Shown here one piece after another: positions 29,573-57,836 of a DNA stretch of 64,000 nt. Numbering within the stretch: the first letter of the stretch is position 1; every line of letters starts with the position of its first letter. The DNA is taken from positions 523,547 through 587,546 of the forward strand of contig AP024681.1 in the NCBI GenBank assembly GCA_025999335.1. The letters run 5' to 3'. A program made the translations under genes and the position numbers. The notes beneath the pieces were generated by a model. The model ran no database searches and was not told where the DNA came from. It saw only the letters and a program-made list of their open reading frames with translations. Source of the stretch: Candidatus Parcubacteria bacterium (lineage in GTDB: Bacteria > Patescibacteriota > Minisyncoccia > UBA6257 > HR35).

Positions 29573-29604
29573 ACATTCCAACATTCTTAAGAATGTTGGA
29601 ATGT
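29573..29604. repeat. 32-nt perfect palindrome, copy 3. Probable bidirectional terminator between convergent genes.
   Basis: Identical to 23401-23432. It lies between the pyrG stop (29527) and the stop of the minus-strand gene ending at 29662. Confidence 0.9.
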
Positions 29605-29661
29605 CCTTAAAAATTACTTTTATTTTTTGTTTCTCTTGATTTCTTAAAAAATAAGAATAAA

Positions 29662-30993: not shown

Positions 30994-31179
30994 TTCTAAT
31001 CTTTATTAGATAATTTTAATTTTATTATTTTTCTTATTATATTATAATTATGTTAGTTTTACTTTGAATTTGTTAATTAGATATTGTATTTAATCAAAAT
31101 AATTTTCGATGTCTTTTATAATTTTGTATAAATTATATAATGTTATATAATAATATTTATAATTAATTTAATATTATAA

Positions 31180-31710
31180 ATGCAAAAAATTGCTTTTATT
31201 ATAGCTAAAAGATATTTTCGAGATGAAGAATTTTTTGTGCCAGCTAGGATGTTAGAAAATGCTGGTTATGAAGTAGTTGTTGTGAGTAATGCTAAGAAAG
31301 GAGAAAGTGCTGTTGGTGCAAATGGCGGTGAGGTTGTTGTTGATTTAGAATTAGAAAATTTAAATCCTGAAAATTTTGATATGGTAGTTTTTGTTGGTGG
31401 TCCAGGAGCTTTGGAAAATTTGGATAATGAAATTAGTTATAAAATTGCCCAAAAAACTGTTGAGTTGAAGAAAAAATTAGCAGCGATTTGCATTGCGCCA
31501 ACGATTTTAGCTAAAGCTGGAGTTTTGAAAGGCAAGAAAGCAACCTGTTGGTCAAGTGAAGAAAACAAAAAACCAATTAAAGTTTTAGAAGAAAATGGCG
31601 CAGAATATACTGGTGAAGATGTTGTTCGCGATGGGGATTTAGTTACTGCCAATGGTCCAGCAGCTGCTGAAAAATTTGGTAAAATATTATTAGAAATATT
31701 GAAAGAATAA
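31180..31710 (+). CDS. DJ-1/PfpI-family protein
   Basis: VVFVGGPGA motif. Nucleophile-elbow Cys in AAICIAPTILAKAG. Confidence 0.75.
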   Translation: MQKIAFIIAKRYFRDEEFFVPARMLENAGYEVVVVSNAKKGESAVGANGGEVVVDLELENLNPENFDMVVFVGGPGALENLDNEISYKIAQKTVELKKKLAAICIAPTILAKAGVLKGKKATCWSSEENKKPIKVLEENGAEYTGEDVVRDGDLVTANGPAAAEKFGKILLEILKE

Positions 31711-31752
31711 AGAAAAGAAAGTTCTCTACAAAATAAAAACAACAATCATTAT

Positions 31753-31805
31753 TCCGGGGTAGTTCAGTGGTACCTGCCTACCGGCAGGCAGGGAACGCGC
31801 GGCTG
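31753..31805 (+). pseudogene. Degenerate 5' half of tRNA-Asn, ending inside the anticodon and carrying a 20-nt palindromic insert in the D-loop
   Basis: tccggggtagttcagtggta + [cctgcctaccggcaggcagg] + gaacgcgcggctg matches nt 1-34 of the intact tRNA-Asn at 32052 apart from the insert. Sequence then diverges (cataat...). Confidence 0.7.
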
Positions 31806-31821
31806 CATAATATAAAATAAA

Positions 31822-32061
31822 ATGAATTATTACGTGTATGTTTTGAGAAGTTTGAAAACAGGAAAACATTATATAGGTATAAGCAAAAATCCAGAGAAGA
31901 GACTAAAAGAGCACAACAAAGGGGATAGTAAATTTACGAAAGGTCATAGACCATGGGTTTTGGTTTATAAAGAGTTTGTTGGTAATAGATTAAAAGCTAG
32001 AGTAAAAGAAAAAGAATTGAAAAGATCATACACAAAACGAAAAAATTTTATTCCGGGGTAG
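31822..32061 (+). CDS. GIY-YIG nuclease-superfamily small protein, 79 aa
   Basis: MNYYVYVLRSLKTGKHYIGISKNPEKRLKEHNKG is the classic GIY-YIG motif (YVY...YIG...R..EH). The stop codon lies inside the first 10 nt of the intact tRNA-Asn. Confidence 0.7.
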   Translation: MNYYVYVLRSLKTGKHYIGISKNPEKRLKEHNKGDSKFTKGHRPWVLVYKEFVGNRLKARVKEKELKRSYTKRKNFIPG

Positions 32062-32123
32062 TTCAGTGGTAGAACGCGCGGCTGTTAACCGCGATGTCGT
32101 AGGTTCGAATCCTACCCCCGGAG
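32052..32123 (+). tRNA. tRNA-Asn(GUU), intact
   Basis: Hand-folded. Acceptor TCCGGGG/CCCCGGA. D-arm GTTC-AGTGGTA-GAAC. Anticodon stem CGCGG/CCGCG with loop CTGTTAA, giving anticodon GTT with A37. T-arm GTAGG-TTCGAAT-CCTAC. Discriminator G. Confidence 0.85.
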
Positions 32124-33710
32124 CAAAGAGGACTGATTTTCGCTTAAATTCTCAAAATCCCTATTAAAATCTTGCTTTTCTTGATTTTTAGCTGGTTCGA
32201 ATACACCCTCTTTCTCTAACTCACCAGGAAGATCCATTATTCGAACCGTAAATATAGGCTCAATCTTTACATTCAGCTTTTTATCCTTTACTATAAATTC
32301 AGAACCTATACACTTTAAAATAGTCCTTTTAGTGGCAATATCTCCGTTAAGATAAGCTTCTTTTATCTTTCCCACGATATTTACATAGTCAATAGCATAA
32401 TCAATCCATCTATCATCTTCATATTCTTGTTCTCTTAACATAGTTTCAATAGCTTGCTTTCTTTTTCTTAGCGGTTCAATATTCCTTTGAAATTCCTCCT
32501 CAGTAATCTCTCCGCTTGATTTCATATTTATTAAGTTATCAATCTGATTAGTTATAGCAGAATACATTCTTTTATAATGACCTAAATTCTTTTCTCTTTC
32601 TTCTTTTCTTTTTCTTTGTTCTTCTTTCAAAGTACTAATAGCCCAGTTATGAATAGCTTCAGGAATGCTAATATTTGATAAAACTTCTAAAATTTCATTT
32701 TCTAACTCCTCCTCTCTTATTGGTTTTTGATGGCAAATTCCAGGATAATTTTTCTTTTTAGCACATTCATAATAAACATATCTCAGAACCCTACCATTTT
32801 TGTTTCTTTTCAATTTTTCATAGCTAGTTAAAACACCACCGCATTCACCACATCTTAATAAGCCTCTAAACATATGAACGATTTTCCTCTTTTTAGGACT
32901 TCCTTTTCTATTTAAAATTTCTTGAACCAATAACCAAGTTTCTTTATCAATAACAGGCTCATAATTTCCTTTATACCAATTACCAGAACCTTTAGGATAT
33001 TCAAACTCACCATAATAATCAGGACATCTTAACATTGCATAAAATTTACTCGGAGATAATCTTTTGCCATATCTATTTGTTAATCCCCACTCATCAACAG
33101 CTATTCTATAAACTTCTTTAGGAGTGTATTGACCACTTGCTAATGTTTCAAATACTTTTCTTATAATATGAAATCTTTCTGGATCAGGAAAATAGTTATG
33201 TTCGCCTTTAGGAGAATATTTGTTATTGAGATAACCCAAAGGAGCTAATCCTGGTTTAAATCCTTTTTCAGCTTTCTTTCTCAGCCCTCTTTTAGTATTA
33301 GTAGCGAGATCTCTAATATACTGGTTAGCCATTCCAGTTTCTACAGCCCATAATAAAGCGTTATCTTCTGGCTTATAAACTCTTTCTGGTGTTCTAATTT
33401 CTTTAATTATTTCTTTTTGTAAAAGCCATTGAATTGTTCCTGAATCAATAGGGTTCCTGCTAAGTCTATCAACTTTCCAACATAAAATAGCATTAGCCTC
33501 TCCTTTTTTAATTTTTTCAATCATTAAGTTAAAAATCTCCCTTCCCGGCTCTTTAGCACTTTTAGCTTCTGTTAAAATATCAACAACTTCTAAACCCTCT
33601 TTTTCTGCTAATTTTTGTAATTCTTCAACCTGAGATTCTAAAGATAAGACCTGTCTATCTTCTGACTCTGAACTTTTTCTAGCATATATAATGTATCTAA
33701 GTTTTCCCAT
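32112..33710 (-). CDS. Large serine recombinase/integrase
   Basis: The N-terminal resolvase catalytic domain has IIYARKSSESEDRQ (catalytic Ser) and VDRLSRN. A recombinase domain and a Cys-rich zinc ribbon (CGECGG...C..C) follow. The 3' end, including the stop, overlaps the last 12 nt of tRNA-Asn. Confidence 0.8.
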   Translation of the reverse strand: MGKLRYIIYARKSSESEDRQVLSLESQVEELQKLAEKEGLEVVDILTEAKSAKEPGREIFNLMIEKIKKGEANAILCWKVDRLSRNPIDSGTIQWLLQKEIIKEIRTPERVYKPEDNALLWAVETGMANQYIRDLATNTKRGLRKKAEKGFKPGLAPLGYLNNKYSPKGEHNYFPDPERFHIIRKVFETLASGQYTPKEVYRIAVDEWGLTNRYGKRLSPSKFYAMLRCPDYYGEFEYPKGSGNWYKGNYEPVIDKETWLLVQEILNRKGSPKKRKIVHMFRGLLRCGECGGVLTSYEKLKRNKNGRVLRYVYYECAKKKNYPGICHQKPIREEELENEILEVLSNISIPEAIHNWAISTLKEEQRKRKEEREKNLGHYKRMYSAITNQIDNLINMKSSGEITEEEFQRNIEPLRKRKQAIETMLREQEYEDDRWIDYAIDYVNIVGKIKEAYLNGDIATKRTILKCIGSEFIVKDKKLNVKIEPIFTVRIMDLPGELEKEGVFEPAKNQEKQDFNRDFENLSENQSSLLRG

Positions 33711-33799
33711 TATTTATGTGAATTATAATAAATTTTTCTTAAAATCGCTAAACTTTATTAAATTAATTTCGCCCATTTTTTCTATGTTTTTTGTATATA

Positions 33800-33960
33800 C
33801 CCCCTCAACGATGTCCCGAAATTCCAGTTACTTAACCTGACCTAACCAGGGGGTTCTTATATAGGACAGGTTAGGTTGAAAAAGGGTATTTAACGATGTC
33901 GGAAAATTCCAACCTGACCTGCCTATATAAACACCCCCTTAGGTAGGTTAGGTTGACAAC
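33800..33960. repeat. Iteron and inverted-repeat cluster in the non-coding gap between integrase and primase genes. Candidate att or ori.
   Basis: aacgatgtcSgAaaattcca occurs twice (33806-33826 and 33891-33911). aacctgacct occurs twice (33834-33843 and 33911-33920). aggttaggttga occurs twice (33868-33879 and 33945-33956). Three ccccct / aggggg runs also occur. Confidence 0.6.
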
Positions 33961-33980
33961 TTTTTCACATAACTAATAGG

Positions 33981-35924
33981 TTAGAACTGAATGTCTAAAA
34001 TTGATAAACTCTCTTTACTCGATACTTCTGCATCTTCACTCTTTTCGTTTAAAAACCAACGATATGTAGCTCCCTTTTTATTTTCTTTTGGGTTTCTGCA
34101 AATTGAACCCTTATCATAAAGGCGGTCTAATGAAGCTTTTAGTTTTTTTCTTGTTATTTTGATTCCTTCATTCTCGAGTTCTTCTTTTATTGCGCTATAG
34201 ATTTCTGATGTTGTTAGCTCTTTTCCAGAATTTTCCTGTAAAAAATTAATTACAGCTTCTTCAATTAAAATGTTTTCTTCTTCAGAGATGTTAATTGATT
34301 TCAATTTCCCATTTTCGTCGAATTCATAAACAAGCTCTTTTGGTTCAATTATTCTTCCCTGCGATCTTAAAATTCTTCTTTTTTTATTATTTTCATGAAT
34401 GTTTAGGGTAATAAGAATGTCAAACATACCAGCGAGTGCGTGTGTTCCTGCAATTGACTTAATCCCTTGTTCGCTTTTGATCGTATGATGCAGTACAATT
34501 AGCGTTGTCCTTCTTTCTTGAAGAAATCTCAAAAAATTTAGCAATAAATTGCTTACTTCACTAGCAGAGGTTTCGTCTCTAATGTCATTACCAACGATAC
34601 TTCTTAGAGTATCTATAATCAAGATATCGGGGCTTAAATTTTTCACAATCTCATTAACTCCTTCAATCCCTAACGCTAATGCTGGTAGTATCAAAAGATT
34701 CTCCTTAATCTTTTCGAAATCCAAGCCTTCAAATAGACCAAACTCTTCATAATTTTTGATTCTTTTCTTCCATAAACTTTTAGATTCTTCTGAGAGATAT
34801 AGAATTTTATAATTTTCAGCCCATCCTAAACAATTTCTAAAAATAAGCTCTGTTTTTCCAGTTTTAGGATACGCAGAAAGAATATGCGTCCACCCCTTAA
34901 CAATAAACCCATTTTCTCCAATTAAGGGTATGAACTCTAGTTGATCTTCTGTTTCGCTTAAGAGATCATCGATAGTAAAGAAGCCCTTCTTTAATTTTTC
35001 GATATAGTCATAATTTAATGTTTTTAAATCACCGCCCTGTTGGTAAAATTCGGTGACATCTTTCCCGCAGGGGAGATTTATTATATAAACATCGCTCACT
35101 GAAAGGCTTAATTTGTTTATTAGATTATTCAACCAAGTTTTTCCAGTCTCATCACGGTCTGGAATAAGAAAAATTTTCTTAAACCTCCTAATTATATCAA
35201 CCCATTCATCAAGCCATTTAGTTGTTCCGCCTCCTGCGATTGTCAGGACGTTGAAACCTTCTTGATTCAGTAAAATAGCATCCAATTCTCCTTCTACCAG
35301 ATATATTTCTTCCTTTTCAAAGTCAACACAGTTAATTGGAAATAAAGTTTTCTTTGTTCCCGATCTTAACCACTTATACTTTTCCAGGTTTGGATTTTCC
35401 TTTAAGGGATCACGCCTGATTTTATAGTTTACAATTTTTCCGCTTTCGTCAAAAATTGGGATCCCAATCCAATAATTTCCTTTTTTATCTTTAAAACAAC
35501 TAAAACCAAATTTAGCAATAGTTTCATCAGTTAGTTTTCTTTTCTTTAACCAATCCTTTAGCTCTTCCGTTAAATCAATCAATTTATAAAACCCTTCACT
35601 AGCTGCCTCTTCTGTTTTTTCTTCAATATCATCAATTTCTCTTAAATAATGTTTTTTTAGATACCTAATGGCATCTTTGGTTGTTAAATTATGACAAATT
35701 TTAATGAAAGAAATAACATTTCCGCCTTTTCCGCAACCAAAGCAATACCAACTATTGGTTTTAGGATATATAGTAAATGAAGGATGGTTATCGTTATGAA
35801 AAGGACATTTTATTTGAGGTGTTCTTCTATTAGGAATTGCAATATCAGTTTCTCTTTGAATTACTTCTTTAATATCGAGATTATTTATTTTTTCAAATAT
35901 GTTATAATTATTTTGTAAAGACAT
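33981..35924 (-). CDS. Bifunctional phage/plasmid-type primase-helicase (zf-CHC2 + Toprim primase fused to a RepA/DnaB-like P-loop ATPase)
   Basis: CHC2 zinc finger (CPFHNDNHPSFTIY...WYCFGCGKGGNVISF). Toprim (LVEGELDAILL). Walker A (AYPKTGKTEL) and Walker B (ILIIDTL) motifs. Confidence 0.75.
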   Translation of the reverse strand: MSLQNNYNIFEKINNLDIKEVIQRETDIAIPNRRTPQIKCPFHNDNHPSFTIYPKTNSWYCFGCGKGGNVISFIKICHNLTTKDAIRYLKKHYLREIDDIEEKTEEAASEGFYKLIDLTEELKDWLKKRKLTDETIAKFGFSCFKDKKGNYWIGIPIFDESGKIVNYKIRRDPLKENPNLEKYKWLRSGTKKTLFPINCVDFEKEEIYLVEGELDAILLNQEGFNVLTIAGGGTTKWLDEWVDIIRRFKKIFLIPDRDETGKTWLNNLINKLSLSVSDVYIINLPCGKDVTEFYQQGGDLKTLNYDYIEKLKKGFFTIDDLLSETEDQLEFIPLIGENGFIVKGWTHILSAYPKTGKTELIFRNCLGWAENYKILYLSEESKSLWKKRIKNYEEFGLFEGLDFEKIKENLLILPALALGIEGVNEIVKNLSPDILIIDTLRSIVGNDIRDETSASEVSNLLLNFLRFLQERRTTLIVLHHTIKSEQGIKSIAGTHALAGMFDILITLNIHENNKKRRILRSQGRIIEPKELVYEFDENGKLKSINISEEENILIEEAVINFLQENSGKELTTSEIYSAIKEELENEGIKITRKKLKASLDRLYDKGSICRNPKENKKGATYRWFLNEKSEDAEVSSKESLSILDIQF

Positions 35925-35976
35925 TTTGTATCATAAAGCCTCGCTACTCTAAAAAGATAGCGGGGCTTTTTCTTTT

Positions 35977-36150
35977 TTAATTTTGACCTTTAAGATGTTT
36001 AAGTACTTCTTCAATATCAAATCTTCTAATACTTCTTTCGTAACTTCTGATTGATTTCAGAACACCCATCTTCTCCCACCTTCTTAAAGTCTGTGGATGC
36101 ACGTTTAGGATTTTTGCAAGCTCTCCAATCTTGATAAATTTTTTCTCCAT
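35977..36150 (-). CDS. MerR/excisionase-family HTH protein, 57 aa. Candidate Xis or regulator.
   Basis: The reverse complement translates to MEKKFIKIGELAKILNVHPQTLRRWEKMGVLKSIRSYERSIRRFDIEEVLKHLKGQN. The I.ELA..L.V...TLRRWE..G.L pattern is the Xis/MerR HTH_17 signature. Not in the track because it is under 60 aa. It overlaps track ORF 36026-36313 in another frame. Confidence 0.5.
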   Translation of the reverse strand: MEKKFIKIGELAKILNVHPQTLRRWEKMGVLKSIRSYERSIRRFDIEEVLKHLKGQN

Positions 36151-36515
36151 TTTTTGCTTTATTTTTTAATGATCGACCTTTAATTTTTTCAAAATTGAAA
36201 ATAACTTTATAAAGCTCCAAAATTTTTATTTTCTGTCTTAAAACTTCATCTTCTTTTAGCTTCAAGCCCGTTTCTTTGAATGCCTTTTCAAATTCTTTTA
36301 AATCTCTTTCCATTTCTCTTAAATTCTTACATTTGCTATAGGGGGAGTAAGGGAGATTTTTTTAAATATTTACTCTCACCATAGCTAAAAAATGTAGAAA
36401 AAATTAGGCAAAATAAAAAAGGAGTCTAATTAGCCTTCTTAAATTTCTAGCTCTTGACAAGGTTTAATCAAAGCAAACAAATCTTATTAGTACTGTTGTT
36501 TTTTTATTAATTTTT

Positions 36516-38159
36516 CTAAAAACTTTTAACTGCTTTTATAAAATCTCTGTAATCCTCTTTATTAACACTCCCCAATTTTAAAAGAGAACATAGCTCATTT
36601 AACGCTCGCCATGATTTTTGAGATTTTTCTAATATTTTCAGTATTATTTCCTTTAACTGAGGTAAATCATCGAGAGCATCAGCCAACATCCATAACAAAT
36701 GAATTTTTTCTCCCTCGAATGGAGTCATATTTTGATCTGCAAAAACATCTGAATAATTGCTTTCAAACTTTTCTACAAAAATAATAGCCTCTTTTATCGA
36801 CTGAAATTCTGATAAAATTTTTGATTTAAGATCTTTTAATTCTTGCCTGTTTTTATTTAAGTGCCTTTGTCTTGTTCTAATTTCCTGTTGATTTCTTGTA
36901 TGAATAGGTGGGTTAACTTTTACTATACCACTTTTTACATAGTTAATTAATTGAGATTGTTTTTTAAGTTCTTTTATTTCTTTCTTCCCATTTTTAATCA
37001 GGCTATTAAATCTCATAAACAGTCTTATAGTGTGCCTCAACTCATATTCTTTAGAATTTTTTATCTCTAAAATAGTTTTTAATCTTTTTCTGAATTCATT
37101 GTTTTCAGTTAATAGATAGCAAAGAACCCTTTTAGTATATGTTTTTTCGTCTTTAAATACTTTTTTGTTTTTTATCCGTTCCCTCATATATAGCCTCCAA
37201 TCATCAGGGTTGAACTCATCATAAAAAACATAATTTTTTAGCAAAGAACCATAAATATCAGGAATTTTGAATTTTTCAATAAAGTTTTTGGTAATTATTT
37301 TATAAGGGACAATCCTGTTTTCTTTATAAGAGACCTCTAATAAAGCTAAATAACCATAAACATCTTCCGTGTTAATTTGTTGTCCCTTAAGTATGTTGAA
37401 GTTTGTAAGATTATCAATATAAACGAAAGTTTCGCTTAATGGAATTTCTAAAATGTTTCTAATTTTCCCTGCATTCTTTAATTTCTGGTTGTTATTCAGT
37501 TCATTAATTTTCTTTTCTAATATTTCTAATGTCCAAAACCTATAATCTCTAAAAACTTTTTCTAAAGAAAAATTTTCGTCTAATTTCTTATATTTTTCTT
37601 CAATTTTCTTTCTTAAATTTAAAAAATCTTGAACATTAATTTTATATTTTTTTCGAAACTTTGCTACCTCTTTTTTGAAATTGTCTAAATTATTAAAATC
37701 CCAGTAAGATAAATATCCATCAAAATAAAGAAGTAATTTTTCCTGAATTATTTCGAATTTATCTAAAGTAGCAGCTTTTTTAAAAAGACTAACTACTTCA
37801 TTCTCATTATTTTTTAAGTAATTTCTAATCACCCCCACAGCATCTCCAATTTTTTCATCTACATATTCCGTCTCTTCTTTTTTTCTAAAAAATTTTTCTG
37901 TATGACTTAACTCCCCGCCAATTTCTTTTATTTCATAATCTAAATCGAAACCGCATTTTTCTAAGAAAAAATTGGATGTTAAATAATCGATAATGTAATC
38001 CACTTGATCTTCTCTTAACTTTATTTCCTTCAATTCTTTAGGGTAAATAGGAAAATAATAAATATCATCAGGTAGTTTTTCGAATAATCTATAACCATTT
38101 CCGCTTTTCAATTGCTCTTTAATACCATTTTTAATTTTCTCTACTAGATTTTTTATCAT
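36516..38159 (-). CDS. Hypothetical 547-aa protein of unknown function. Island cargo.
   Basis: Long uninterrupted ORF, Lys/Glu/Asn-rich. I could not recognise any Walker, nuclease, HTH or transmembrane motif. Confidence 0.4.
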   Translation of the reverse strand: MIKNLVEKIKNGIKEQLKSGNGYRLFEKLPDDIYYFPIYPKELKEIKLREDQVDYIIDYLTSNFFLEKCGFDLDYEIKEIGGELSHTEKFFRKKEETEYVDEKIGDAVGVIRNYLKNNENEVVSLFKKAATLDKFEIIQEKLLLYFDGYLSYWDFNNLDNFKKEVAKFRKKYKINVQDFLNLRKKIEEKYKKLDENFSLEKVFRDYRFWTLEILEKKINELNNNQKLKNAGKIRNILEIPLSETFVYIDNLTNFNILKGQQINTEDVYGYLALLEVSYKENRIVPYKIITKNFIEKFKIPDIYGSLLKNYVFYDEFNPDDWRLYMRERIKNKKVFKDEKTYTKRVLCYLLTENNEFRKRLKTILEIKNSKEYELRHTIRLFMRFNSLIKNGKKEIKELKKQSQLINYVKSGIVKVNPPIHTRNQQEIRTRQRHLNKNRQELKDLKSKILSEFQSIKEAIIFVEKFESNYSDVFADQNMTPFEGEKIHLLWMLADALDDLPQLKEIILKILEKSQKSWRALNELCSLLKLGSVNKEDYRDFIKAVKSF

Positions 38160-38940
38160 TTTTGCTAAAATTTTATATTTCCTTATTAAAAAGTCAACTC
38201 TTAATTAAATTTTACCTAAAAGTTATAAAGCTTAAACCTTTTTAAAAGCTTACGGGCTTAAATGTATTTTGTGAAAATTTAAAAATTCCGCAGATTTTAC
38301 AAAAATTAAAAATCTTTATTATATTCACCACGAAGTCTATTCCTTGCTTTAAAAATAACTCCCTGTACCCCTCCCCTGGCTATGTTTAAACAAGCGCTCT
38401 TTACCACTATAGTTTCACTTTTTACTTTTTAAGTCATTCCATTATCTAACAAGAAGGAGATAATTTTTAAAGCAGAAATTTTTACTATAAAACACCATAA
38501 CACCATAACACTAAATTCTACAATCTGAATATTTAAATTAAATTTCAAAAATCCTCTCAAAAAACTAAGATTCCAAGCATAATTAAACCCTAAATTCCTT
38601 AAACAAAATTCACAATTTTTGATAAAATTTAATTAATAAAGGCTGAGAACAATGGTTGATAAAAATAATAAAAAGAATGATAAAAAATTTGTAGAGTTGA
38701 TCTGGCATGGAAAATATAAAGAATTTAATTTGAAAGATAAAATTTCTATCGAGAGACCAAATCTGCCGTTCCAGTTTATAGAAACAATTAATGAACCTAT
38801 ATAAATATGGAACAGCTTAAATATTTTCTAAATTAATTAAATTATACATAGCAACAGTTAGGTTATGAACAAGTTACTAGAAATTCGCATAAATTGCCCT
38901 AAGGAATATTTAAAAATAAATTAAAAAATAATGTTAAAAA

Positions 38941-41685
38941 ATGAGAAACTCGACAAACAATTGGAAGACGGTAGTATTAAAAAAGTTTGAGGAACTAGAT
39001 TATAAGAAAGAGATTCTTACAATTTTTGATGAAAGAACCAAAAAGATAGATTTTTCAAGTTGTATTAAGCAACATCAAAAACAGAACTTCGAAGACGAAG
39101 CTTACATAAGAGCCTATCTTGTTTTGAGACTCATAAAAGAGCTTAATTATCCATGTGAAGTGATAGAGTTAGAAAAAAAATATTCCATAGGTCATCCTTC
39201 TAAAAAAGAAGCCCGTTTAGATATTCTTGTTAAGACTAAAAGAGGAAATCCATTCATGTTATTAGAGTGCAAAACCCCAGATAACTTTATCAAAGAAAAA
39301 GATGATGCTCTAGAAAATCAACTTTTTGCAATTGCTAAGCACGAAATAAGAGGCGAAATAAAACCAAAATACTTAGTCTTATATACAATAGATATTGAAA
39401 ATGGAAAAGTTTTAGATAGAGCAATTATAATAGATTTCGAACAATACTCAACTTATGAAGATTGGAAAGAAGCAGGAGAATCTTCCTTGGATGAGATACC
39501 AGCAGATTATGGTATAGCAAAAAAATATACGTATGCCAACATAGAAAGACCAAATCCAAATGGTGGTTTAAAACCCCTAAGAAAAGATTATACTCTTGCA
39601 GATTTTGAAAAGCTAAGAGTAGATCTACATAACAAATTATGGGCTGGAGGTGAGGCTGATTACAACGATATCTTCTATCATCTAATAAAGATAATGCTCG
39701 TTAAAATATATGATGAGTTATTTACGCCCGAAGGAGGAATTTATGACTTTCAAATATTTTATAAGAATGGTGAACCAGAAACCCCAGAGGAACTAGCAGA
39801 AAGATTAGAAAAGAAATACAAAATCGCTTTAAAAGAACTTTTAAACTATGATGATGAAAAAATAAAGGAAATACCTTTGATTGAGAGAGATAAATTTACT
39901 TATGAAAAGTTATTCTATGCCGTAGAGAAACTCCAAGAAATTTCTTTAACAGAAAATATTCATAGCAAAGGAGAAGATGTTTTGGGCTTATTCTTTGAAA
40001 GCATATTACAAAACGAATTTAAACAAAGTAAAGGACAGTATTTCACTCATAAGAATATTGTAAGATTTTTAATTTATGCATTAGAATTAGATAAATTAGC
40101 GATAGACAAGTTGAATCAAACATATCCACACTTTCCATACATTATAGACCCTGCTGCTGGTAGTGGCACATTTCTTGTTGAAGCAATGAAAATTATTACA
40201 AAAGAAGTGTTGAGAAATAAAGATAAATTAAAACTTACTAGATCTTTAAAAGAAAAAATAAAGGACTTAGAAGACCCTAATAGGAAACATCGTTGGGCAG
40301 AAGATTATATTTATGGAATTGAGCCGAACGCCCGTTTAGGTTTAGCAACCAAACTAAACATGATTCTGCATGGCGATGGAAACATGAATATTTTTATTGA
40401 AGATGGTCTAATGCCTTTCAAAATAAAAGATGAAGCGTTTTACACGAGAAAGTGGAAAGGGAAGGATGTTGGTTTGTTGGCTGAGGGTGAAAATACGAGT
40501 ATTTACCCAAAACCAATAAATGGACGTTTTGATGTGGTACTATCAAACCCGCCTTTCTCTATGAAAATTGAGGCGATGAAAGCTTATAGGTACATAAAAG
40601 ATACCTTTGTTTTTTACGATAAGAAAAATTCAGAAAACTTATTTATAGAAAGATGGTTCCAGTTATTAGCCCCCAAAGGAAGATTAGGTGTTGTCTTGCC
40701 AGAAAGTGTTTTTGATACTAAAGAAAACCTATATATCAGGAATTTTCTTTATAAGTATTTCAAAATAAAGGCTATCATCAGCCTGCCTAAGGAAGCTTTT
40801 GAACCTTACACATCAACGAAGGTTAGTTTGTTAATTGCAGAAAAGAAAACCGATGAAGAAATTAAAGCATGGGAGGATAAATGGAGAGAGTATGCAAACA
40901 AATACAATAAATTAAGAAATTCAGAAATAATCCGGTTTTTCATAGAGAACGATAAAATTCTTAACTCTTTCAGAACACTTTTGGACAAACATAATATTGA
41001 AATAGATTATTCAAAAGTTTTGGTTCATGACTTGTTGGATGATAATTTGAAAGGTGAAATTGAAGCAAAAATATTACAAAATGATAAAAATAAATTTAAG
41101 GATTTGGTAAAGAAAATAAAATACTTTAAAGATAAATATAAACTGGACGAGTTAGATACTGAAGAAAATAAGAAAATTCTGAAGGAATTTCTGAAACAAT
41201 TTTATCCACAAGAGCAAGAGCTTAAGAGTTTTAAAGAACTCTTAGAATATGTTTATGATGATGTTCTGGAAATAGCCACTTTGGACTATCCACAAATTGA
41301 AGGGCAAAACAATTACTGTAATAGCTGGTGGGTTTTTGGAGAGGTATCTAAGCACTTTAATTATTCGATATTCTACGCTGAAGTTGAAAACATTGGGTAT
41401 AAGAGAACAAAGAGGGGCGAACAAGACAAAGACATTCCAATAAAAGATGAAAATGGAAATATCATCGCTTTTAAAAACGATTTCTTTAAAGTTAAAGCCG
41501 AGAAAGTGAAGAGAACATATTGGGTTAAGAAAGGGGATAAAGTAGTTCAGGAAGAAAAAGAGGAAATTATCAAAACCGACATAATAATAGATACAGAAAA
41601 TCCTGAAACTGTGCTTGACCATATAAGAAGTGCAAACATTTGGTCAGAAAATTCCAATTTTAATTTTGAGGTGAAAGAAAAATGA
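38941..41685 (+). CDS. Fused restriction endonuclease / N6-adenine DNA methyltransferase (Type IIG/IIB, BcgI-A-like)
   Basis: The N-terminal HSDR_N-like PD-(D/E)xK domain has RLDILVKTKRGNPFMLLECK. The central gamma-class MTase has motif X (GQYFTHKNIV), motif I (IDPAAGSGTFLVEA) and motif IV (VLSNPPFS). The C-terminal ~350 aa is helical and of unknown role. Confidence 0.7.
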   Translation: MRNSTNNWKTVVLKKFEELDYKKEILTIFDERTKKIDFSSCIKQHQKQNFEDEAYIRAYLVLRLIKELNYPCEVIELEKKYSIGHPSKKEARLDILVKTKRGNPFMLLECKTPDNFIKEKDDALENQLFAIAKHEIRGEIKPKYLVLYTIDIENGKVLDRAIIIDFEQYSTYEDWKEAGESSLDEIPADYGIAKKYTYANIERPNPNGGLKPLRKDYTLADFEKLRVDLHNKLWAGGEADYNDIFYHLIKIMLVKIYDELFTPEGGIYDFQIFYKNGEPETPEELAERLEKKYKIALKELLNYDDEKIKEIPLIERDKFTYEKLFYAVEKLQEISLTENIHSKGEDVLGLFFESILQNEFKQSKGQYFTHKNIVRFLIYALELDKLAIDKLNQTYPHFPYIIDPAAGSGTFLVEAMKIITKEVLRNKDKLKLTRSLKEKIKDLEDPNRKHRWAEDYIYGIEPNARLGLATKLNMILHGDGNMNIFIEDGLMPFKIKDEAFYTRKWKGKDVGLLAEGENTSIYPKPINGRFDVVLSNPPFSMKIEAMKAYRYIKDTFVFYDKKNSENLFIERWFQLLAPKGRLGVVLPESVFDTKENLYIRNFLYKYFKIKAIISLPKEAFEPYTSTKVSLLIAEKKTDEEIKAWEDKWREYANKYNKLRNSEIIRFFIENDKILNSFRTLLDKHNIEIDYSKVLVHDLLDDNLKGEIEAKILQNDKNKFKDLVKKIKYFKDKYKLDELDTEENKKILKEFLKQFYPQEQELKSFKELLEYVYDDVLEIATLDYPQIEGQNNYCNSWWVFGEVSKHFNYSIFYAEVENIGYKRTKRGEQDKDIPIKDENGNIIAFKNDFFKVKAEKVKRTYWVKKGDKVVQEEKEEIIKTDIIIDTENPETVLDHIRSANIWSENSNFNFEVKEK

Positions 41686-43076
41686 AAGTACAAAATATTA
41701 CTTTACAAAATATTTCTCGGAATTACTATCTGCGTTTAGATTATAAAATTAATGCGTATCATTCTCATATTAGAAAAGATTATAAAAATGGTTGGAAAGT
41801 AAAGGACTTCCTTAAAATTATCAAGGCAAATCAAACAAAACCAGAAAACTTTGATGAAGGATATTTAATAGAATTAGAACATATTTTAAGCGGAGATGTG
41901 GAATTGAATAATGTTAAAAAAGTTAATGAGATTGGTTCAGATAAAGTTATTCTTAATCAAGCTAATTTTGCTTATTGTAAACTGGAAACAGGTAAAGGCT
42001 ATTTTATAGCTCTTCCTGAGGACATTCCTGATTATGATGGTGTATCATTAATTGTTGGGTCTACAGAGCTAGTACCATGTAGAGTAAGCATTAATAACAA
42101 AATTGCGAAATATTATCTTACACACTTTAAAGAAATTTTTAATATGTTCCTTTCTGGAAAAACGCATAGAAGGATACATGAAATAGAATTCTTAAATATA
42201 GAACTTCCAAAAATAAAAATTAGCAATACTCTATTGGATAAGATAATTTCAATTGAGAAAGAAATCTCTAAACTTAAAACTCAAATCAAGGAACCTAAAA
42301 TTATTGTAGATGAAGTTTTCAGCAAATACTTTAAACTTGATCTGAAACAATATTCAAATTTAGAAAAGAAACATATATTTGGAGAAGATTTGTTTAACTT
42401 ATCTAAATCTGCACAACTCAGGAGTTCTCTAAAGTTTCATCATCCAAAATTTGATTTTGTTTTGAAAAAAATAAAAGAGTTCAAAACTGTAAAACTGAAA
42501 CAATTACTGAAAGAACCTGTAAGAAGAGGCGTTCAACCAGAATATGAAGAAGAAGGGGGAATCCTCGTAATAAAAACTATTAATGTAAATAAAGAAGGAT
42601 ACATTGATTTAACCGAAACCGAATTTGTTAGTGATGAGTTTTATAACAAAGTAAAAAAGAAGGCAGGAATTCAACAAGGAGACATTCTTATAACATCTAC
42701 AGGCGAAGGACGGGGGAAGGTAAGCTTATATGACTTAGATGAACCCGCAATTATAGATACTCACATATCAATAGTCAGGTGCAAAGAAGATGTGAATAAA
42801 AAATATTTAACCTACTTTTTGCTATCAAGTATGGGAGAGAACCAATTAAGTATTTTAGAGCAAGCCATTAAAGGAACCCCAGAAATTTATCCACGAGAAA
42901 TAGAAAAACTTATTGTAATCTATCCTCCCTCTGAAATTCAGAACAAAATAGTTGAAGAAATAGAGACAAAACTTAACGAACAAAGAAAAATTACCAGGCA
43001 AATAGAGAAACTAAAACAAGAAATAGATAAACTGATAGAAAAAGCAATTTTGGATAACAAACTAAAAAATGATTAA
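41682..43076 (+). CDS. Restriction-modification specificity (HsdS-like) subunit with two target-recognition domains
   Basis: The ATGA start/stop overlap with the upstream R-M gene suggests translational coupling. It is 464 aa with two variable halves separated and followed by conserved coiled-coil spacers (…ISKLKTQIKEP… and …ITRQIEKLKQEIDKLIEKAI…), as in Methylase_S. Confidence 0.6.
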   Translation: MKVQNITLQNISRNYYLRLDYKINAYHSHIRKDYKNGWKVKDFLKIIKANQTKPENFDEGYLIELEHILSGDVELNNVKKVNEIGSDKVILNQANFAYCKLETGKGYFIALPEDIPDYDGVSLIVGSTELVPCRVSINNKIAKYYLTHFKEIFNMFLSGKTHRRIHEIEFLNIELPKIKISNTLLDKIISIEKEISKLKTQIKEPKIIVDEVFSKYFKLDLKQYSNLEKKHIFGEDLFNLSKSAQLRSSLKFHHPKFDFVLKKIKEFKTVKLKQLLKEPVRRGVQPEYEEEGGILVIKTINVNKEGYIDLTETEFVSDEFYNKVKKKAGIQQGDILITSTGEGRGKVSLYDLDEPAIIDTHISIVRCKEDVNKKYLTYFLLSSMGENQLSILEQAIKGTPEIYPREIEKLIVIYPPSEIQNKIVEEIETKLNEQRKITRQIEKLKQEIDKLIEKAILDNKLKND

Positions 43077-43350
43077 GACTCTTGGGCGCGTGCGGGACTT
43101 TTTATTTAATTTTGTGAAGTTTATTTTTACAGTTCGCTAATAAACGAATATCTGATTCAAGCTTTTAGTCTTAGGTAAAATTATTCTAGAAATTTTAAAC
43201 ATTAATAATATTATTAAGTTGAAAGTAAAGAAGATGTCGAGAAGTCTAAAAGAAGGTTTTAATATCGCAAAACAACCCCAGCTGTATTCCTTATCTTCAA
43301 TTTCACTTTCCATTCTGTTTGTTTTATAATATTTTCAAGAGTTCGAATAA

Positions 43351-45144
43351 AATTTTCCCTGCGGAGGAGAAAGATTAGAAAAAGGAAAAACATACATCAT
43401 TAGATGGGAGTCCAATGGTGTTTCACATGTTTATCTTAAATTAAGAAAAGGTAATGATGCATACCCAGGACAGGAAGGAATGATATCCGGTATTATTTTT
43501 AATACAGGATTTTATCAGTGGACAGTTCCCAAAACATTACCATATGGAAATGATTACAAGATTAGGGTGATTGATGCTGATTTAATATCTTCAACAAATG
43601 TAGACACAGGACCTGTTATTGATGATAGCGATGCTTCATTTAGTATTGTCTCTTCAACAACTACTCCTTCAATCAGAGTTATTTCACCTAATGGAGGAGA
43701 AAATTGGACTATCGATTCTTATCAAAAAATAAAATGGAGCGCACTCAATGATAAAACAGTTAGTATTTATTTAAAAAGGTATATTTCTTGTCTTTATGCT
43801 CAGCCTAAGTGTCGATTAACAGAACCAATGCCTATAATTATTGCTGAGAATATTCCAAATATAGGTGAATATGATTGGCAAGTTGGGAATATTGTTAAAA
43901 AATTTGAATATCAAACTTTATCTTCAGGTAGTTATATTATTGAGATTAGAGGAAATAATTCAGGAGAAGTAGATGTTAGTGATAAACCGTTGCAAATTGT
44001 TTATACAAATAGTCCTTTAAATCCTTCAAAACAAGCTTGTATTCAGGCTACAACTTTTGCTTATGATCCTAAAAATCCATCAAAATGTCAAGAATTTTCA
44101 ACACCTTGCGATGTTCCCGAGGGTTGGCTAACAACAGATAAATGCCAACAAAAAAATACTTTCTTAGAACCTATGGAGGTGCCAGTATTGGTTATAAAAT
44201 ATTATCCTACTCAAAATGGACGAACTATTGATACTTCCATTACTTTGGATATTCCTCAAGGAAGAACTATCAAAGAACAAGATGAAATCACCAATAGTTT
44301 GAATAAAAAATTGATAAAAGCCCTAACTGAAGGAAGTAAATATCATGGTTATAAAAATTCTAATGCTTTACCTTTTTTAACTTATAAAGTGATTGCAGAA
44401 AAGACATTTTTGAAAAGATTACCTTTAACTGATAACAAAATAATAGATTACTTTAGTATTATGAAAGATCTTAATGTTTGTGATTATGTTGATAATAAAG
44501 GGGTTAAAGAAATTTGGATTTGGGCTTATGCTAGCAATTACGAAATAATGTGGGAATCTAATTTTTCATCTATTTATGGTGATATAAGTAATAGCAATCG
44601 AGACCCTAATGATTTGCCTGTTTGTAAAAAATCGTATACTGTTTACACTTATAATTATGGCAGAGAATATGCTACGGCTTTGGAGAATCATGGTCATCAA
44701 ATAGAGCATATCTTAAATTGGATTGATGGTCGAGATATAACACCAAATGATCAATGGGATAAGCTTTTATTCTGGGGTAAATTTGTTGGGCGAAATTTTG
44801 AAAATAAAATACTGCCTCCTGTTTCTGCTTGTGGTTGGATTCATTCTCCGCCAAATACAGAAAAAGATTATCATTGGTATGAGAAAACCCAAGTATTTTC
44901 AGACTGTGAGGATTGGAATCCAAATAGAACAGGCAAGAAAAAACCTGTAAACTGCGTTACCTGGACTGGTAATTCTGAATGTAAAGATGATGGCGGAGGA
45001 GAAATGTTTAAAATTTGGTGGATGCAAAATATTCCTGGCTATAAAAATGAGCTTTACTATAATAATATCAAACTAAGAAATTGGTGGGAATTTATTGGCG
45101 ATTTTGATGAAGCTTTGAAAATAGGGAAAAGTTTGACTTACTGA
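43351..45144 (+). CDS. Secreted Cys-rich beta-sandwich protein. Apparently 5'-truncated; the first ATG is at 43480.
   Basis: The reading frame is open from 43351 with no start codon. The upstream in-frame sequence …KTYIIRWESNGVSHVYLKLRKGNDAYPGQEGMISGIIFNTGFYQWTVPKTLPYGNDYKIRV is one coherent Ig-like 'Y.W.VP...G.DYKIRV' module, so coding sequence precedes the first Met. No signal peptide is present. A second Ig-like module follows, then a Cys-rich C-terminal region. Confidence 0.4.
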   Translation, partial: NFPCGGERLEKGKTYIIRWESNGVSHVYLKLRKGNDAYPGQEGMISGIIFNTGFYQWTVPKTLPYGNDYKIRVIDADLISSTNVDTGPVIDDSDASFSIVSSTTTPSIRVISPNGGENWTIDSYQKIKWSALNDKTVSIYLKRYISCLYAQPKCRLTEPMPIIIAENIPNIGEYDWQVGNIVKKFEYQTLSSGSYIIEIRGNNSGEVDVSDKPLQIVYTNSPLNPSKQACIQATTFAYDPKNPSKCQEFSTPCDVPEGWLTTDKCQQKNTFLEPMEVPVLVIKYYPTQNGRTIDTSITLDIPQGRTIKEQDEITNSLNKKLIKALTEGSKYHGYKNSNALPFLTYKVIAEKTFLKRLPLTDNKIIDYFSIMKDLNVCDYVDNKGVKEIWIWAYASNYEIMWESNFSSIYGDISNSNRDPNDLPVCKKSYTVYTYNYGREYATALENHGHQIEHILNWIDGRDITPNDQWDKLLFWGKFVGRNFENKILPPVSACGWIHSPPNTEKDYHWYEKTQVFSDCEDWNPNRTGKKKPVNCVTWTGNSECKDDGGGEMFKIWWMQNIPGYKNELYYNNIKLRNWWEFIGDFDEALKIGKSLTY

Positions 45145-45572: not shown

Positions 45573-46844
45573 TTATAATTTTAAAATAGTTTTTTTGAAA
45601 TTTGAAAACCTGTTTTCTTTAATTGACTTTCTAATTTCTTTAAATAAATTCAAAATCCAGAACACATTATGTTCAGTTAAAAGTATAATGCCGTAAATTT
45701 CTTTTTCGCGAAGCAGATGACAAATATATGCTCGTGAATATTTTCTACAAATATTACATTTGCATTTGGGATCAATAGGTTTTTTATCTGTTAAATATTT
45801 ACTTGCTTTTAAATTAATTCTTCCATTAAAACTAAATCCTGTTCCATGCCTTGCCCATCTGGTTGGAATTACACAATCAAATAAATCAATTCCTTGTTCA
45901 ATTGAATTCAAAATATCATCAATTTCTCCAATTCCCAAAAGATGTCGTGGTTTTTTATAATCAAGATAAGGCAAAGCCCAACTTAAAACTTTAATAATAT
46001 CTTTTTTACTTTTACCCAAACTTCCACCGATACCAAAACCAAAAAAGGGAAGTGAATTAATAAATTGAGCCGATTCTTTTCTTAAATCTTCATATTCTCC
46101 TCCTTGAACAATTCCAAACAAAACTTGATTTTTGGTTTTACCAAATTCATCCAAGCATTTAATTGCCCATTTATGAGTTCTTTTTAATGCTTCTTTTGTG
46201 TATTTATAATCAGACAAAGGGGAAGTGCATTCATCAAAAGCAAAAATAATATCTGCGCCCAAAATTTTTTGAACTTTAATTGAAATTTTTGGAGATAAAA
46301 ATAATTTTTGTCCATTGTAAGGATCAATAAATTCAACACCATCATCATAAATTCTAACCAGATTCTTTTTTAATGCAGATAAACGCGGATTTTTATCACG
46401 CGGATTTACGCCGATATTATTTTCTGTGTATATCCCGTTTTTTTTATTTTCCGCGTAGTTCCGCGTTAGTTCTGCAGAGTTTTTCATTTCCTCAGGAAAA
46501 ATATCTGCCACTTTTCCAACCCCATGTTCCATTCCGAAACCCAAACTAAAAACCTGAAATCCTCCACTATCAGTCATTAAAGGATAATTAATATTTAAAA
46601 ATTTATGCAAACTACCAAATTTTTTAATAATTTTATATTTTTCCTGACGAAAAAAATGAAAAGTATTAATCATAAAAATTTCAGCACCAAATTTTTTAGC
46701 TTGTTCAAAACTTAAACCTCGAATACCACCTTTTGTTGCAACAATTGCTAAATTAGGAGTTTTAATTAAACCATGAGGTGTTTTAAAAATTCCTAATCTT
46801 GCTTTTGTTGTTTTGTCTTTCTTTAATATTTTAAATTTAAACAT
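45573..46844 (-). CDS. tgt: tRNA-guanine transglycosylase (queuine tRNA-ribosyltransferase)
   Basis: LMTDSGGFQ catalytic motif. Zn site CKCNICRKYSRAYICHL (CxCxxC...H). A low-complexity repeat insertion lies around 46380-46470. Confidence 0.8.
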   Translation of the reverse strand: MFKFKILKKDKTTKARLGIFKTPHGLIKTPNLAIVATKGGIRGLSFEQAKKFGAEIFMINTFHFFRQEKYKIIKKFGSLHKFLNINYPLMTDSGGFQVFSLGFGMEHGVGKVADIFPEEMKNSAELTRNYAENKKNGIYTENNIGVNPRDKNPRLSALKKNLVRIYDDGVEFIDPYNGQKLFLSPKISIKVQKILGADIIFAFDECTSPLSDYKYTKEALKRTHKWAIKCLDEFGKTKNQVLFGIVQGGEYEDLRKESAQFINSLPFFGFGIGGSLGKSKKDIIKVLSWALPYLDYKKPRHLLGIGEIDDILNSIEQGIDLFDCVIPTRWARHGTGFSFNGRINLKASKYLTDKKPIDPKCKCNICRKYSRAYICHLLREKEIYGIILLTEHNVFWILNLFKEIRKSIKENRFSNFKKTILKL

Positions 46845-52818: not shown

Positions 52819-52859
52819 CACAGAAGAATAATTTTCATCCTCTTTTTCAAAAATTTTAA

Positions 52860-56593: not shown

Positions 56594-56854
56594 TTGAATA
56601 AGATTAATATTAACCTGCCAAAAATGAAAAAGATATTTACCGTCGGTTTAATAGTCCTATTATTAAACTTTCTCTTTTTTAATTTTGCCGAAGCTTATGT
56701 TAGAGTAAGAGGTTATTCTAGGAAAGATGGAACTTATGTAATGCCTCATTATAGAACTTATCCCAATAGATATAAATGGGATAACTGGTCAAGCAGGGAT
56801 AATTATAATCCATTTACTGGTAAAAAAGGATATAAAAGATTGTATTCATGGTAA
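56594..56854 (+). CDS. Small secreted protein, 86 aa, hypothetical
   Basis: Signal-like N-terminus. Tyr/Arg/Trp-rich. Confidence 0.3.
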   Translation: MNKININLPKMKKIFTVGLIVLLLNFLFFNFAEAYVRVRGYSRKDGTYVMPHYRTYPNRYKWDNWSSRDNYNPFTGKKGYKRLYSW

Positions 56855-57804: not shown

Positions 57805-57836
57805 ACTCAGTTTGTTTCTATACGTACAATGGATTT

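Follow-up and report, generated by a model that had tools for sequence, protein, structure and literature searches.

A probable mobile element with a large serine integrase and a Type IIB restriction system at tRNA-Asn in a Parcubacteria genome

Islands at tRNA genes that are carried by tyrosine integrases (Islander-type, P4-like and pSAM2-like elements) are small, place the integrase gene next to the tRNA, bear a tRNA-like repeat at their far end and combine a replication module with variable cargo. The large serine integrases of phages and other elements (A118/LI, phiC31, Bxb1, SPbeta SprA, CcrAB and XisF) form a separate recombinase group, and in a survey of 2168 complete genomes serine integrases were described as ‘not known for targeting tRNA genes’; 14 of its 297 predicted serine-integrase cases were located at t(m)RNA genes, none of which was tested, and its authors stated that ‘experimental proof will be required’ (PMC7192596). 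Here, we describe a block of genes in a 64,000-nucleotide stretch of DNA (hereafter ‘the window’) from Candidatus Parcubacteria bacterium KatS3mg097, taken from a 680-kb contig with a GC content of ~29%, in which a large serine integrase gene converges on a tRNA-Asn(GUU) gene. The segment at ~32123-43365 is, in our view, likely to be an integrated element, potentially capable of self-replication, from a family that resides in Parcubacteria (Patescibacteria). An initial annotation made from the DNA alone had proposed an integrated mobile element at this position, and this proposal is supported by the profile matches of the integrase, by relatives whose locus is free of the island, by related elements with different cargo at tRNA-Asn in other genomes and by a conserved site at the far end. 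Patescibacteria, or candidate phyla radiation (CPR) bacteria, have very small genomes, and the host is of the ultra-small, episymbiotic type. To our knowledge, few mobile elements have been described in these bacteria and no conjugation systems are known.

The 532-residue integrase contains Resolvase (PF00239, E = 4.8e-20), Recombinase (PF07508, E = 1.6e-7) and Zn_ribbon_recom (PF13408, E = 4.6e-14) domains in Pfam, and matches both the phrog_95 integrase profile in PHROGs (E = 2.6e-76) and the C-terminal domain of the A118 integrase (PDB 4kis, E = 3.3e-6). Read against the catalytic residue list for serine recombinases (PMC12884075), its YARKSS segment (R11, S13) and D81-R82-L83-S84-R85 are invariant in three members of its protein cluster. 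Membership in the large serine recombinase family, which the initial annotation had made a test of its reading, is thus borne out by strong profile matches and by the retained R11/S13 and D81-R82-L83-x-R85 residues. The protein resembles the phage and element integrases named above in its Resolvase, Recombinase, zinc ribbon order, in its catalytic residues, in being encoded at one end of the element and in left half-site motifs that differ by 5 bp between the two partner sites. It is unlike them in that its predicted target is the 3’ end of a tRNA that would be left intact, and in that its reading frame runs into the tRNA gene, with the stop codon positioned inside the acceptor stem. A tyrosine-integrase (Islander) type island was considered and rejected: the recombinase is a serine integrase, no island open reading frame (ORF) matches Phage_integrase in Pfam, and the far-end repeat does not represent a displaced piece of the tRNA.

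Related integrases occupy equivalent positions in other genomes. The 90%-identity cluster of the protein includes members from the Parcubacteria metagenome-assembled genomes (MAGs) KatS3mg094/095, to which it is 96% identical, and from bacterium HR35, where the integrase is shortened to 391 residues; at all of these loci (L085-L088) the integrase gene converges on tRNA-Asn. A metagenome scan with the integrase yielded 17 loci. Those 63-71% identical to the window protein adjoin tRNA-Asn (L100, L101, L103, L104 and L112; the tRNA of L101 contains a group I intron), those 45% identical lie ~130 nt from tRNA-Asn (L105-L108), and those 36-38% identical either adjoin tRNA-Gly (L109-L111) or lie 170 nt from tRNA-Ser (L116). 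An integrase of this family is therefore found beside tRNA-Asn in KatS3mg094/095, in HR35 and at metagenome loci L100, L101, L103-L108 and L112. Known phage integrases share no more than ~29% protein identity with that of the window, no relative was present in IMG/VR, and exact-protein look-ups with the integrase and with tgt returned no match.

The remaining genes on the integrase strand would form a single operon that leads from a 547-residue protein through a small ORF and a helix-turn-helix (HTH) protein of the MerR/excisionase type to a primase-helicase and the integrase, with a restriction-modification (R-M) cargo slot divergent from it across a conserved 480-nt control region (Table 1). 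All components listed by the initial annotation, i.e. tRNA, serine recombinase, primase-helicase, 547-residue protein, R-M protein and S subunit, were recovered. The 647-residue primase-helicase contains zf-CHC2, Toprim_2 and AAA_25 domains in Pfam and matches phrog_239 DNA primase/helicase (E = 1.8e-38). PADLOC hits that would label it a defence-associated reverse transcriptase (DRT) were set aside, as they cover only residues 6-147, the zinc-finger DnaG-like part, and Pfam gives primase, Toprim and AAA_25 domains with no reverse transcriptase domain. A MerR/Xis-like HTH is present as claimed, but it is the 57-residue ORF (MerR, E = 2.1e-10; HTH_17, 29.7 bits against a cut-off of 27) and not the 95-residue ORF whose 3’ part it overlaps in another frame. 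Homologues of the 57-residue protein lie at the same place in L086 and L117, and we regard it as a likely candidate for a recombination directionality factor or regulator. The 95-residue ORF has no family match in Pfam or PHROGs; its N-terminal part resembles a 71-residue ORF of L085.

Two non-coding segments may carry cis-acting functions. The gap between the integrase and primase-helicase genes had been called iteron-rich, which does not hold, since it contains only two copies of a composite unit and not an array. Each unit consists of a 20-nt direct repeat and a palindrome with AACCTGACCT-type arms, arranged as AACGATGTCnnnAAATTCCA plus the palindrome AACCTGACCT...AGGTnAGGTT round TATATA and GGGGG boxes. 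The gap is partly conserved in L085 and HR35 and is a candidate operator or origin upstream of the integrase gene. BLAST matches the control region to that of the KatS3mg094/095 element (L085) at 89% identity (~90% in the alignment), and the conserved stretch reaches exactly to the start codons of the divergent, non-homologous genes that flank it. It has no Rfam match and a promoter scan gave nothing above chance; it probably holds divergent promoters and/or a cis-acting site.

Assignment of the element to a described class is constrained by what it lacks. Scans with Pfam and PHROGs found no capsid, tail, terminase or lysis genes within 32.1-43.4 kb, and we therefore rejected a prophage; in the Pfam scan no relaxase, oriT or type IV secretion match was present in the island, and it was not classed as an integrative and conjugative or integrative mobilizable element. 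It shares with phage satellites (phage-inducible chromosomal islands, PICI, and P4-like elements) and with integrative mobilizable elements an integrase, an excisionase-type HTH, a primase-helicase, a defence cargo slot, the lack of structural genes, and relatives with a small-terminase-like gene; it differs from them in that library scans found neither a packaging gene nor a relaxase in the window copy and in that its integrase is of the serine and not the tyrosine type. It is possible, although we find it doubtful, that the element is itself a phage satellite, excised and replicated upon infection by a helper phage and packaged in helper capsids, and not an autonomous integrative plasmid-like element. 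The absence of structural, relaxase and secretion genes (Pfam, PHROGs) would fit such a lifestyle, as would the related elements L100 and L103 (4.9-5.6 kb) and the HR35 remnant, which combine a helicase and an integrase with a GP3_package (small-terminase-like) gene at the integrase-distal end and which point to satellite-like spread for at least part of the family. The window also encodes a GP3_package gene (57837-58190, minus strand), but it is located outside the element, and within the ends of the element neither GP3_package nor any other packaging-redirection gene (small terminase or similar) was found in Pfam or PHROGs. In addition, we know of no helper phage for this host, and the viral and phage collections searched contain no close relatives of the integrase (IMG/VR) or of the 547-residue protein (phage records).

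Our interpretation of the segment as an integrated element draws on related loci that lack it, a comparison that the initial annotation had proposed. On 19 contigs we found a relative, at least 90% identical, of the 79-residue GIY-YIG protein encoded just left of the tRNA. Loci L089-L093 have the gene order DJ-1, GIY-YIG, tRNA-Asn, HIT, Peptidase_S66 without an integrase, and their DNA is 82.6% identical to window positions 31159-32202; in L094 unrelated DNA directly follows the tRNA, and there is no island. At ~83% DNA identity over DJ-1, GIY-YIG and tRNA-Asn, L089-L094 thus hold the locus without the element. A tgt-based scan of one genome per species was uninformative (closest tgt 57% identical, no tgt/tRNA-Asn synteny, no empty site). 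In L089, 78 nt after tRNA-Asn (10304-10381) match the last codons of the window integrase gene, the match ending right after GGTTTGAAT, and in the window itself ~35 nt after a second tRNA-Asn gene (52820-52900) match the integrase 3’ end with no integrase adjacent. Because L094 has no such match, we read these stretches as probable scars of lost elements.

Sequence identities across the element are uneven. Relative to the KatS3mg094/095 element, in which a 482-residue protein, a 71-residue ORF, a MerR HTH, the primase-helicase and the integrase are followed by tRNA-Asn (L085/L086), DNA identity is 94.5% over the integrase and tRNA, 89% over the control region and 70% over the primase, and the genes for the 547- and 482-residue proteins have no DNA similarity. 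The host genes tgt, Q_salvage and AA_kinase of the same genomes are 77-85% identical. An integrase that is closer than housekeeping genes, next to modules that are less close, is the pattern of a mobile element, and by this comparison the element is a mosaic. The same figures bear on whether it could instead be an old, immobile resident, i.e. a block inherited vertically at tRNA-Asn, its cargo swapped by ordinary recombination and its integrase a relic or repurposed. The family does occur at tRNA-Asn in many related genomes, where neighbours such as tgt, AA_kinase and CTP synthase are partly kept; scars and decayed copies are frequent (the 391-residue HR35 integrase, L089 and window 52820); and common descent would account for the likeness of the far-end motif among the window, L100 and L103. 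We nevertheless judge this account improbable: it does not fit an integrase at 94.5% beside housekeeping genes at 77-85% and a primase at 70%, nor the intact integrase, primase-helicase and HTH genes with their catalytic residues kept, nor the absence of the element from the closer relatives at the DJ-1/GIY-YIG locus, and the exact 5-bp widening of the motif spacing at the far end, described below, suggests selection on a working site.

The DNA of L085 (1-7878, GCA_026004495.1) and L086 (1-7875, GCA_026004515.1), which come from two MAGs, is 99.9% identical over the element, tRNA-Asn and the 29 nt that follow, with different host genes beyond. A Type III methyltransferase gene is cut off at an identical position by the end of each contig. 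Two tRNA-Asn loci may thus carry the element, or the two assemblies joined it differently.

The ends of the element were located by comparing the tRNA with the conserved integrase-distal terminus. The 3’ end of tRNA-Asn (32102-32125) reads GGTTCGAAT-CCTACCCC-CGGAGCA, with a spacer of 8 nt between the T-loop motif and the acceptor end. The distal window copy reads AGTTCGAAT-13 nt-CGGAGGA at 43340-43368, in the same orientation as the tRNA, and the copies of the window, L100 and L103 conform to (A/G)GTTCGAAT, 13 unrelated nt and CGGAG(G/C)A. Window positions 43284-43372 are 79-81% identical to the integrase-distal ends of L100, L102 and L103, and the similarity ends after this mimic of the tRNA 3’ end. 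Three matches to the pattern GTTCGAAT-N5-16-GGAG were counted in the window, in the two tRNA-Asn genes and at the distal site, where 0.02 would be expected. In all three elements with a complete far end (window, L100 and L103), the spacer is 13 nt at the distal site and 8 nt in the tRNA; the distal copy shares with the tRNA only the 9-nt T-loop motif and CGGAG, its spacer being unrelated and 5 nt longer. It is this changed spacing and unrelated spacer, together with the recombinase family, that set the element apart from the tyrosine-integrase islands, which it otherwise resembles in size, in its position at a tRNA with a tRNA-proximal integrase gene, in its tRNA-like far-end repeat and in its replication module and variable cargo.

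The difference of 5 nt has a counterpart in known large serine integrases. Rutherford et al. reported that the motif bound by the zinc-ribbon domain is located 5 bp nearer the centre in attB than in attP half-sites (positions 16-24 in P and 11-19 in B; PMC3783163). If the shared motif is the zinc-ribbon-domain motif, this numbering places both crossovers on the GA of CGGAG, at 32121-32122 and at 43364-43365 (attR), which would define an element of 11,243 bp (32123-43365); this rule was applied to the left half-sites only, and the right half-sites are weak. The island had initially been drawn from 32052 to 43480; its existence and general extent stand, while its right end is moved to ~43365. 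Mechanistically, the integrase would insert at the extreme 3’ end of tRNA-Asn, where the T-loop motif GGTTCGAAT and the acceptor end CGGAG would act as the host B half-site (attL). The P look-alike of the element, with the same motifs 5 bp wider, would come to lie at the far end after integration (attR), and a GA crossover would leave the tRNA intact with or without the element. The predicted attP is ...TTTTCCCTGCG GA GCAAAGAGGACTG... (drawn to another extent, ...AAAATTTTCCCTGCG-GA-GCAAAGAGGACTGATTTTCGC...) and the predicted attB is ...CCTACCCCCG GA GGAGAAAGATTAG... (...GGTTCGAATCCTACCCCCG-GA-GGAGAAAGATTAGAAAAAGG...); on reading the sequence, TTCG is in register in P’.

The crossover could instead be located elsewhere, either within the T-loop TTCGAA in the style of a tyrosine integrase, with the tRNA 3’ end duplicated, or at the second GGTTCGAAT at 32194-32202, in which case the last 29 integrase codons would be host DNA; we regard the two variants, even taken together, as unlikely. 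GGTTCGAAT is indeed found twice in exact form (32102 and 32194) and once with a single mismatch (43340), the homology of the window to the island-free L089 ends exactly after GGTT(C/T)GAAT at 32202, and the next 8 nt of L089 resemble those that follow the motif in L100 and L103. However, a T-loop crossover with the observed attR would give a broken tRNA on excision, and the stretch between the distal motifs shares no base with the tRNA although both motifs are kept, so that it does not look like a decayed duplicate. L094 is without the 78 nt found in L089, so these are not general host sequence, and the additional 5 nt of spacing are explained only by the half-site model.

Several observations weigh against an integrated and presently mobile element. 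The right half-sites (P’ and B’) are only weakly symmetric to the left ones. At L089 and window 52820-52900, the two ‘empty’ tRNA-Asn sites, 35-78 nt from the 3’ side of the integrase gene persist, which indicates deletion and not clean excision; elements would thus be lost by deletion in addition to excision. We found no circular or empty-site junction for the window strain, the contig of its only near-identical relative, GCA_041640215.1 (98.3%), ending inside the GIY-YIG gene, and the window copy is without transfer machinery. Base composition does not mark the island off from the window: its parts range from 0.25 to 0.34 GC against 0.29 for the window, and GC skew and GC content track gene orientation, so that the comparison with the flanks proposed by the initial annotation revealed nothing distinctive. 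Lastly, Logan contigs of DRR290133 reproduce 29576-32078, 33796-38279 and 38603-43343 at 100% identity, but the unitigs end at 32078, 33796, 38279/38603 and 43343, i.e. in the tRNA, the integrase-primase gap, the control region and the terminal site. These breaks fall in segments shared with co-occurring relatives, and the linkage of the modules rests on the depositors’ assembly; because the unitigs end at module boundaries, they suggest that the sample contains several co-occurring strains or related elements. That the island is an assembly chimera, in which modules of co-occurring elements were joined via shared segments, is very unlikely, as these unitig ends and the identical 7.9 kb of L085/L086 on different flanks in two MAGs are offset by a source record that is a single 680-kb contig, by the same module order in L085/L086, L101 and L117 from other samples, and by the expectation that unitigs break at strain-shared sequence whether the assembly is right or wrong.

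The cargo slot of the integrated element encodes a predicted Type IIB R-M system. The 914-residue protein combines a PD-(D/E)XK nuclease with a gamma N6-adenine methyltransferase in one polypeptide (HSDR_N_2 and N6_Mtase/Eco57I in Pfam) and matches RM.BsaXI (PDB 8w0p) at E = 1.9e-179; D94, E109, K111 and NPPF at 535-539 are invariant in seven homologues. The S gene overlaps the RM gene by 4 nt, and its product matches Specificity_I in PADLOC (E = 1.4e-21) and S.BsaXI (E = 2.3e-10). The block had been credited with a fused BcgI-like R-M protein and an HsdS-like subunit, and the BsaXI matches agree with this, BcgI-like and BsaXI-like denoting the same Type IIB class. Like BsaXI and BcgI, the system comprises an RM fusion and a separate S protein and keeps the nuclease and NPPF motifs; unlike them, it is located on a Patescibacterium mobile element, and its S recognition domains differ from those of the Caldicellulosiruptor homologue. 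The 90%-identity cluster of the RM protein contains Caldicellulosiruptor hydrothermalis, Koleobacter methoxysyntrophicus, Thermosediminibacterales and Desulfofervidaceae, and the protein is 87-89% identical to the cluster members compared. At the DNA level, identity between the RM gene and its Caldicellulosiruptor counterpart is 87.5% over 38941-41692, which is exactly the gene, and to judge from this identity it was exchanged recently across phyla among thermophiles. In the S gene only the conserved segments match Caldicellulosiruptor (80-84% identical); because the recognition domains differ, the target sequence of the window system is probably different.

The slot itself appears to have held another system. 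The 50-residue stub between the control region and the RM gene matches MTase_III in PADLOC (E = 1.2e-4), as does the gene at the same place in L085 (E = 4.8e-94). Type III systems occur in relatives as Mod at the same position (L085), as Mod and Res there (L117) and as Mod and Res beside the integrase (L116). With Type III genes at the same slot in L085 and L117, the segment divergent from the operon reads as an R-M slot in which one system is swapped for another; here, a Type III system would have been replaced by the BsaXI-like Type IIB RM and S pair shared with thermophilic Firmicutes, leaving the 50-residue stub. The initial description of the block as a defence island with undescribed cargo is fair for the R-M part, but not for the 547-residue protein, which is not arbitrary cargo but a member of a recurrent family.

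The operon that continues with the HTH, primase-helicase and integrase genes opens with the gene for the 547-residue protein. This protein had been noted as lacking a recognizable domain, and indeed no match was found in Pfam, PADLOC, PHROGs or NCBIfam. A word-indexed search of 5.8 billion proteins returned only the protein itself, while an exhaustive HMMER search of 1.84 billion representatives identified four relatives, the best of which (P0149) is 31% identical over its full length (E = 3.4e-42). LNFWDFNDFxNFKKEIxKFRKR and IPExFxCLLKDFIFYDDFNxxDW are among the conserved motifs of the family. In all five loci where it is seen (L117, L101, L104, L119 and the window), the protein occupies the same slot of a related element, which identifies it as a recurrent first operon gene. 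In L117 a MerR HTH and Type III Res and Mod genes (minus strand) are followed by the homologue (plus strand), 53- and 136-residue ORFs, an AAA_25 helicase and an integrase that shares 70.6% identity with that of the window; in L101 a full-length 561-residue homologue precedes the primase-helicase, integrase and tRNA-Asn; in L104 the homologue lies upstream of the integrase; and in L119 two methyltransferase genes and a 465-residue ORF are divergent from it. At ~30% identity, against ~70% for the integrases, the family diverges much faster. The 482-residue protein in the same slot of L085 was considered as a member and is not detectably related. Structure prediction gave a useless single-sequence model (predicted local distance difference test score, pLDDT, 38.8) and a five-sequence model with pLDDT 60; BFVD and profile searches against PDB sequences and PHROGs gave no match, so that neither structure nor profile searches assigned a fold, and no relative occurs in phage records. 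Our guess is that the protein works together with the primase-helicase, either to initiate replication or as a regulator; it may alternatively have a defence or counter-defence role.

Table 1. Positions in the window of the features of the element and its flanks
Feature	Position	Strand	Basis
tRNA-Asn(GUU)	32052-32124	+	ARAGORN and Rfam
Large serine integrase, 532 aa	32112-33710	-	Pfam, PHROGs
Non-coding gap with two composite repeat units	33711-33980		Repeat analysis
Primase-helicase, 647 aa	33981-35924	-	Pfam, PHROGs
MerR/HTH_17 excisionase-type protein, 57 aa	35977-36150	-	Pfam
95-aa ORF	36026-36313	-	No family match
547-aa alpha-helical protein, very rare family	36516-38159	-	Exhaustive HMMER search
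~480-nt intergenic control region	38160-38641		Conservation with KatS3mg094/095 element
50-aa N-terminal stub of Type III methyltransferase	38652-38804	+	PADLOC
Predicted Type IIB RM fusion protein, 914 aa	38941-41685	+	PDB 8w0p, Pfam, PADLOC
Specificity (S) subunit, HsdS-like, 464 aa	41682-43076	+	PADLOC, S.BsaXI match
Conserved integrase-distal terminus with putative P-type half-site	43284-43372	+	Similarity to L100, L102, L103
DJ-1, left flank	31180-31710		Pfam
Kre9_KNH-domain protein, right flank	43480-45144		Pfam
tgt, right flank	45573-46844		Pfam

The flanks of the block had been described as core or housekeeping genes, and Pfam identifies DJ-1 on the left and a Kre9_KNH-domain protein and tgt on the right. 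The Kre9_KNH gene is annotated from an ATG at 43480 that cuts its first immunoglobulin-like domain; its frame is open back to 43351 and is in register with a Met at 43234 through TAA stops at 43327 and 43348 inside the conserved terminus. The gene thus looks shortened at its 5’ end at the attR junction, but truncation by the insertion was considered and dropped, the upstream in-frame ‘signal peptide’ inside the element terminus being probably fortuitous.

In the second tRNA-Asn(GUU) gene of the window (52522-52819, plus strand), which ARAGORN and the whole-window Rfam scan both missed, a ~225-nt group I intron interrupts the anticodon loop at position 35/36 (RF00028, E = 4e-13; score 54.3 bits, cut-off 50). 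A 2026 publication describes such group I introns in the tRNA-Asn of Patescibacteria (PMC13011429). The gene has AA_kinase...Trypsin surroundings, as does the integrase-linked tRNA-Asn of HR35 and KatS3mg094. A 305-residue ORF that follows it is not an integrase remnant. Further downstream, at 56848-58190, the GP3_package gene and a gene for a 318-residue protein resemble the integrase-distal module of L100/L103 and the gene next to the HR35 integrase remnant, and possibly represent what is left of a second element that lay downstream of this intron-bearing gene. The neighbourhoods of tRNA-Asn differ in every related genome compared (window 27.8-32.1 and 43.4-64 kb against L087, L089, L094 and L100), with CTP synthase, YkuD, DJ-1, HIT, tgt, AA_kinase and Trypsin shuffled around it, which suggests that this clade tends to rearrange its genome at tRNA-Asn sites.

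Upstream of the 79-residue GIY-YIG gene lies a pseudo 5’ half of tRNA-Asn (window 31748-32061, plus strand; L089 9900-10240). It consists of TCCGGGGTAGTTCAGTGGTA, a 20-nt GC hairpin and GAACGCGCGGCTG, and it ends exactly at the position of intron insertion; it is followed by a -10-like box (CATAAT; TATAAT in L089) and by the GIY-YIG gene, the end of which overlaps the full tRNA-Asn. L089 has the same layout with a longer hairpin, and the DJ-1 and GIY-YIG genes recur in contigs, the GIY-YIG protein being read on 19. The arrangement resembles insertion of a homing-endonuclease gene at the site of the intron, accompanied by duplication of the 5’ exon, and we did not find it described in the literature.

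An island with R-M cargo belongs to a familiar class. What is new here is the type of recombinase at a tRNA gene, the relation between the attB and attP half-sites, the host phylum, an R-M gene that crosses phyla and a very rare protein. A family of elements with a large serine integrase and its own primase-helicase is, as far as a limited literature search goes, previously undescribed, since that search found no later paper on such a tRNA-targeting serine-integrase family or on such integrative elements of Patescibacteria. We put forward tentatively that this may be the first well-supported large-serine-integrase family that naturally uses the 3’ end of a tRNA gene as attB, with a P mimic wider by 5 bp, carried by small replicative, possibly satellite, elements that shuttle restriction systems across phyla and in which the 547-residue protein would have a new essential function. 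The family offers a testable case of serine integrases at tRNA genes, which had been predicted and flagged as unproven (PMC7192596). Its predicted 40-50-bp att sites are a possible engineering tool, with an attB in any genome that has a similar tRNA-Asn, and an almost unique protein is now tied to a defined genetic context. For the biology of the host, the R-M gene shared with Firmicutes thermophiles would provide a concrete vehicle and route by which Patescibacteria may gain defence genes.

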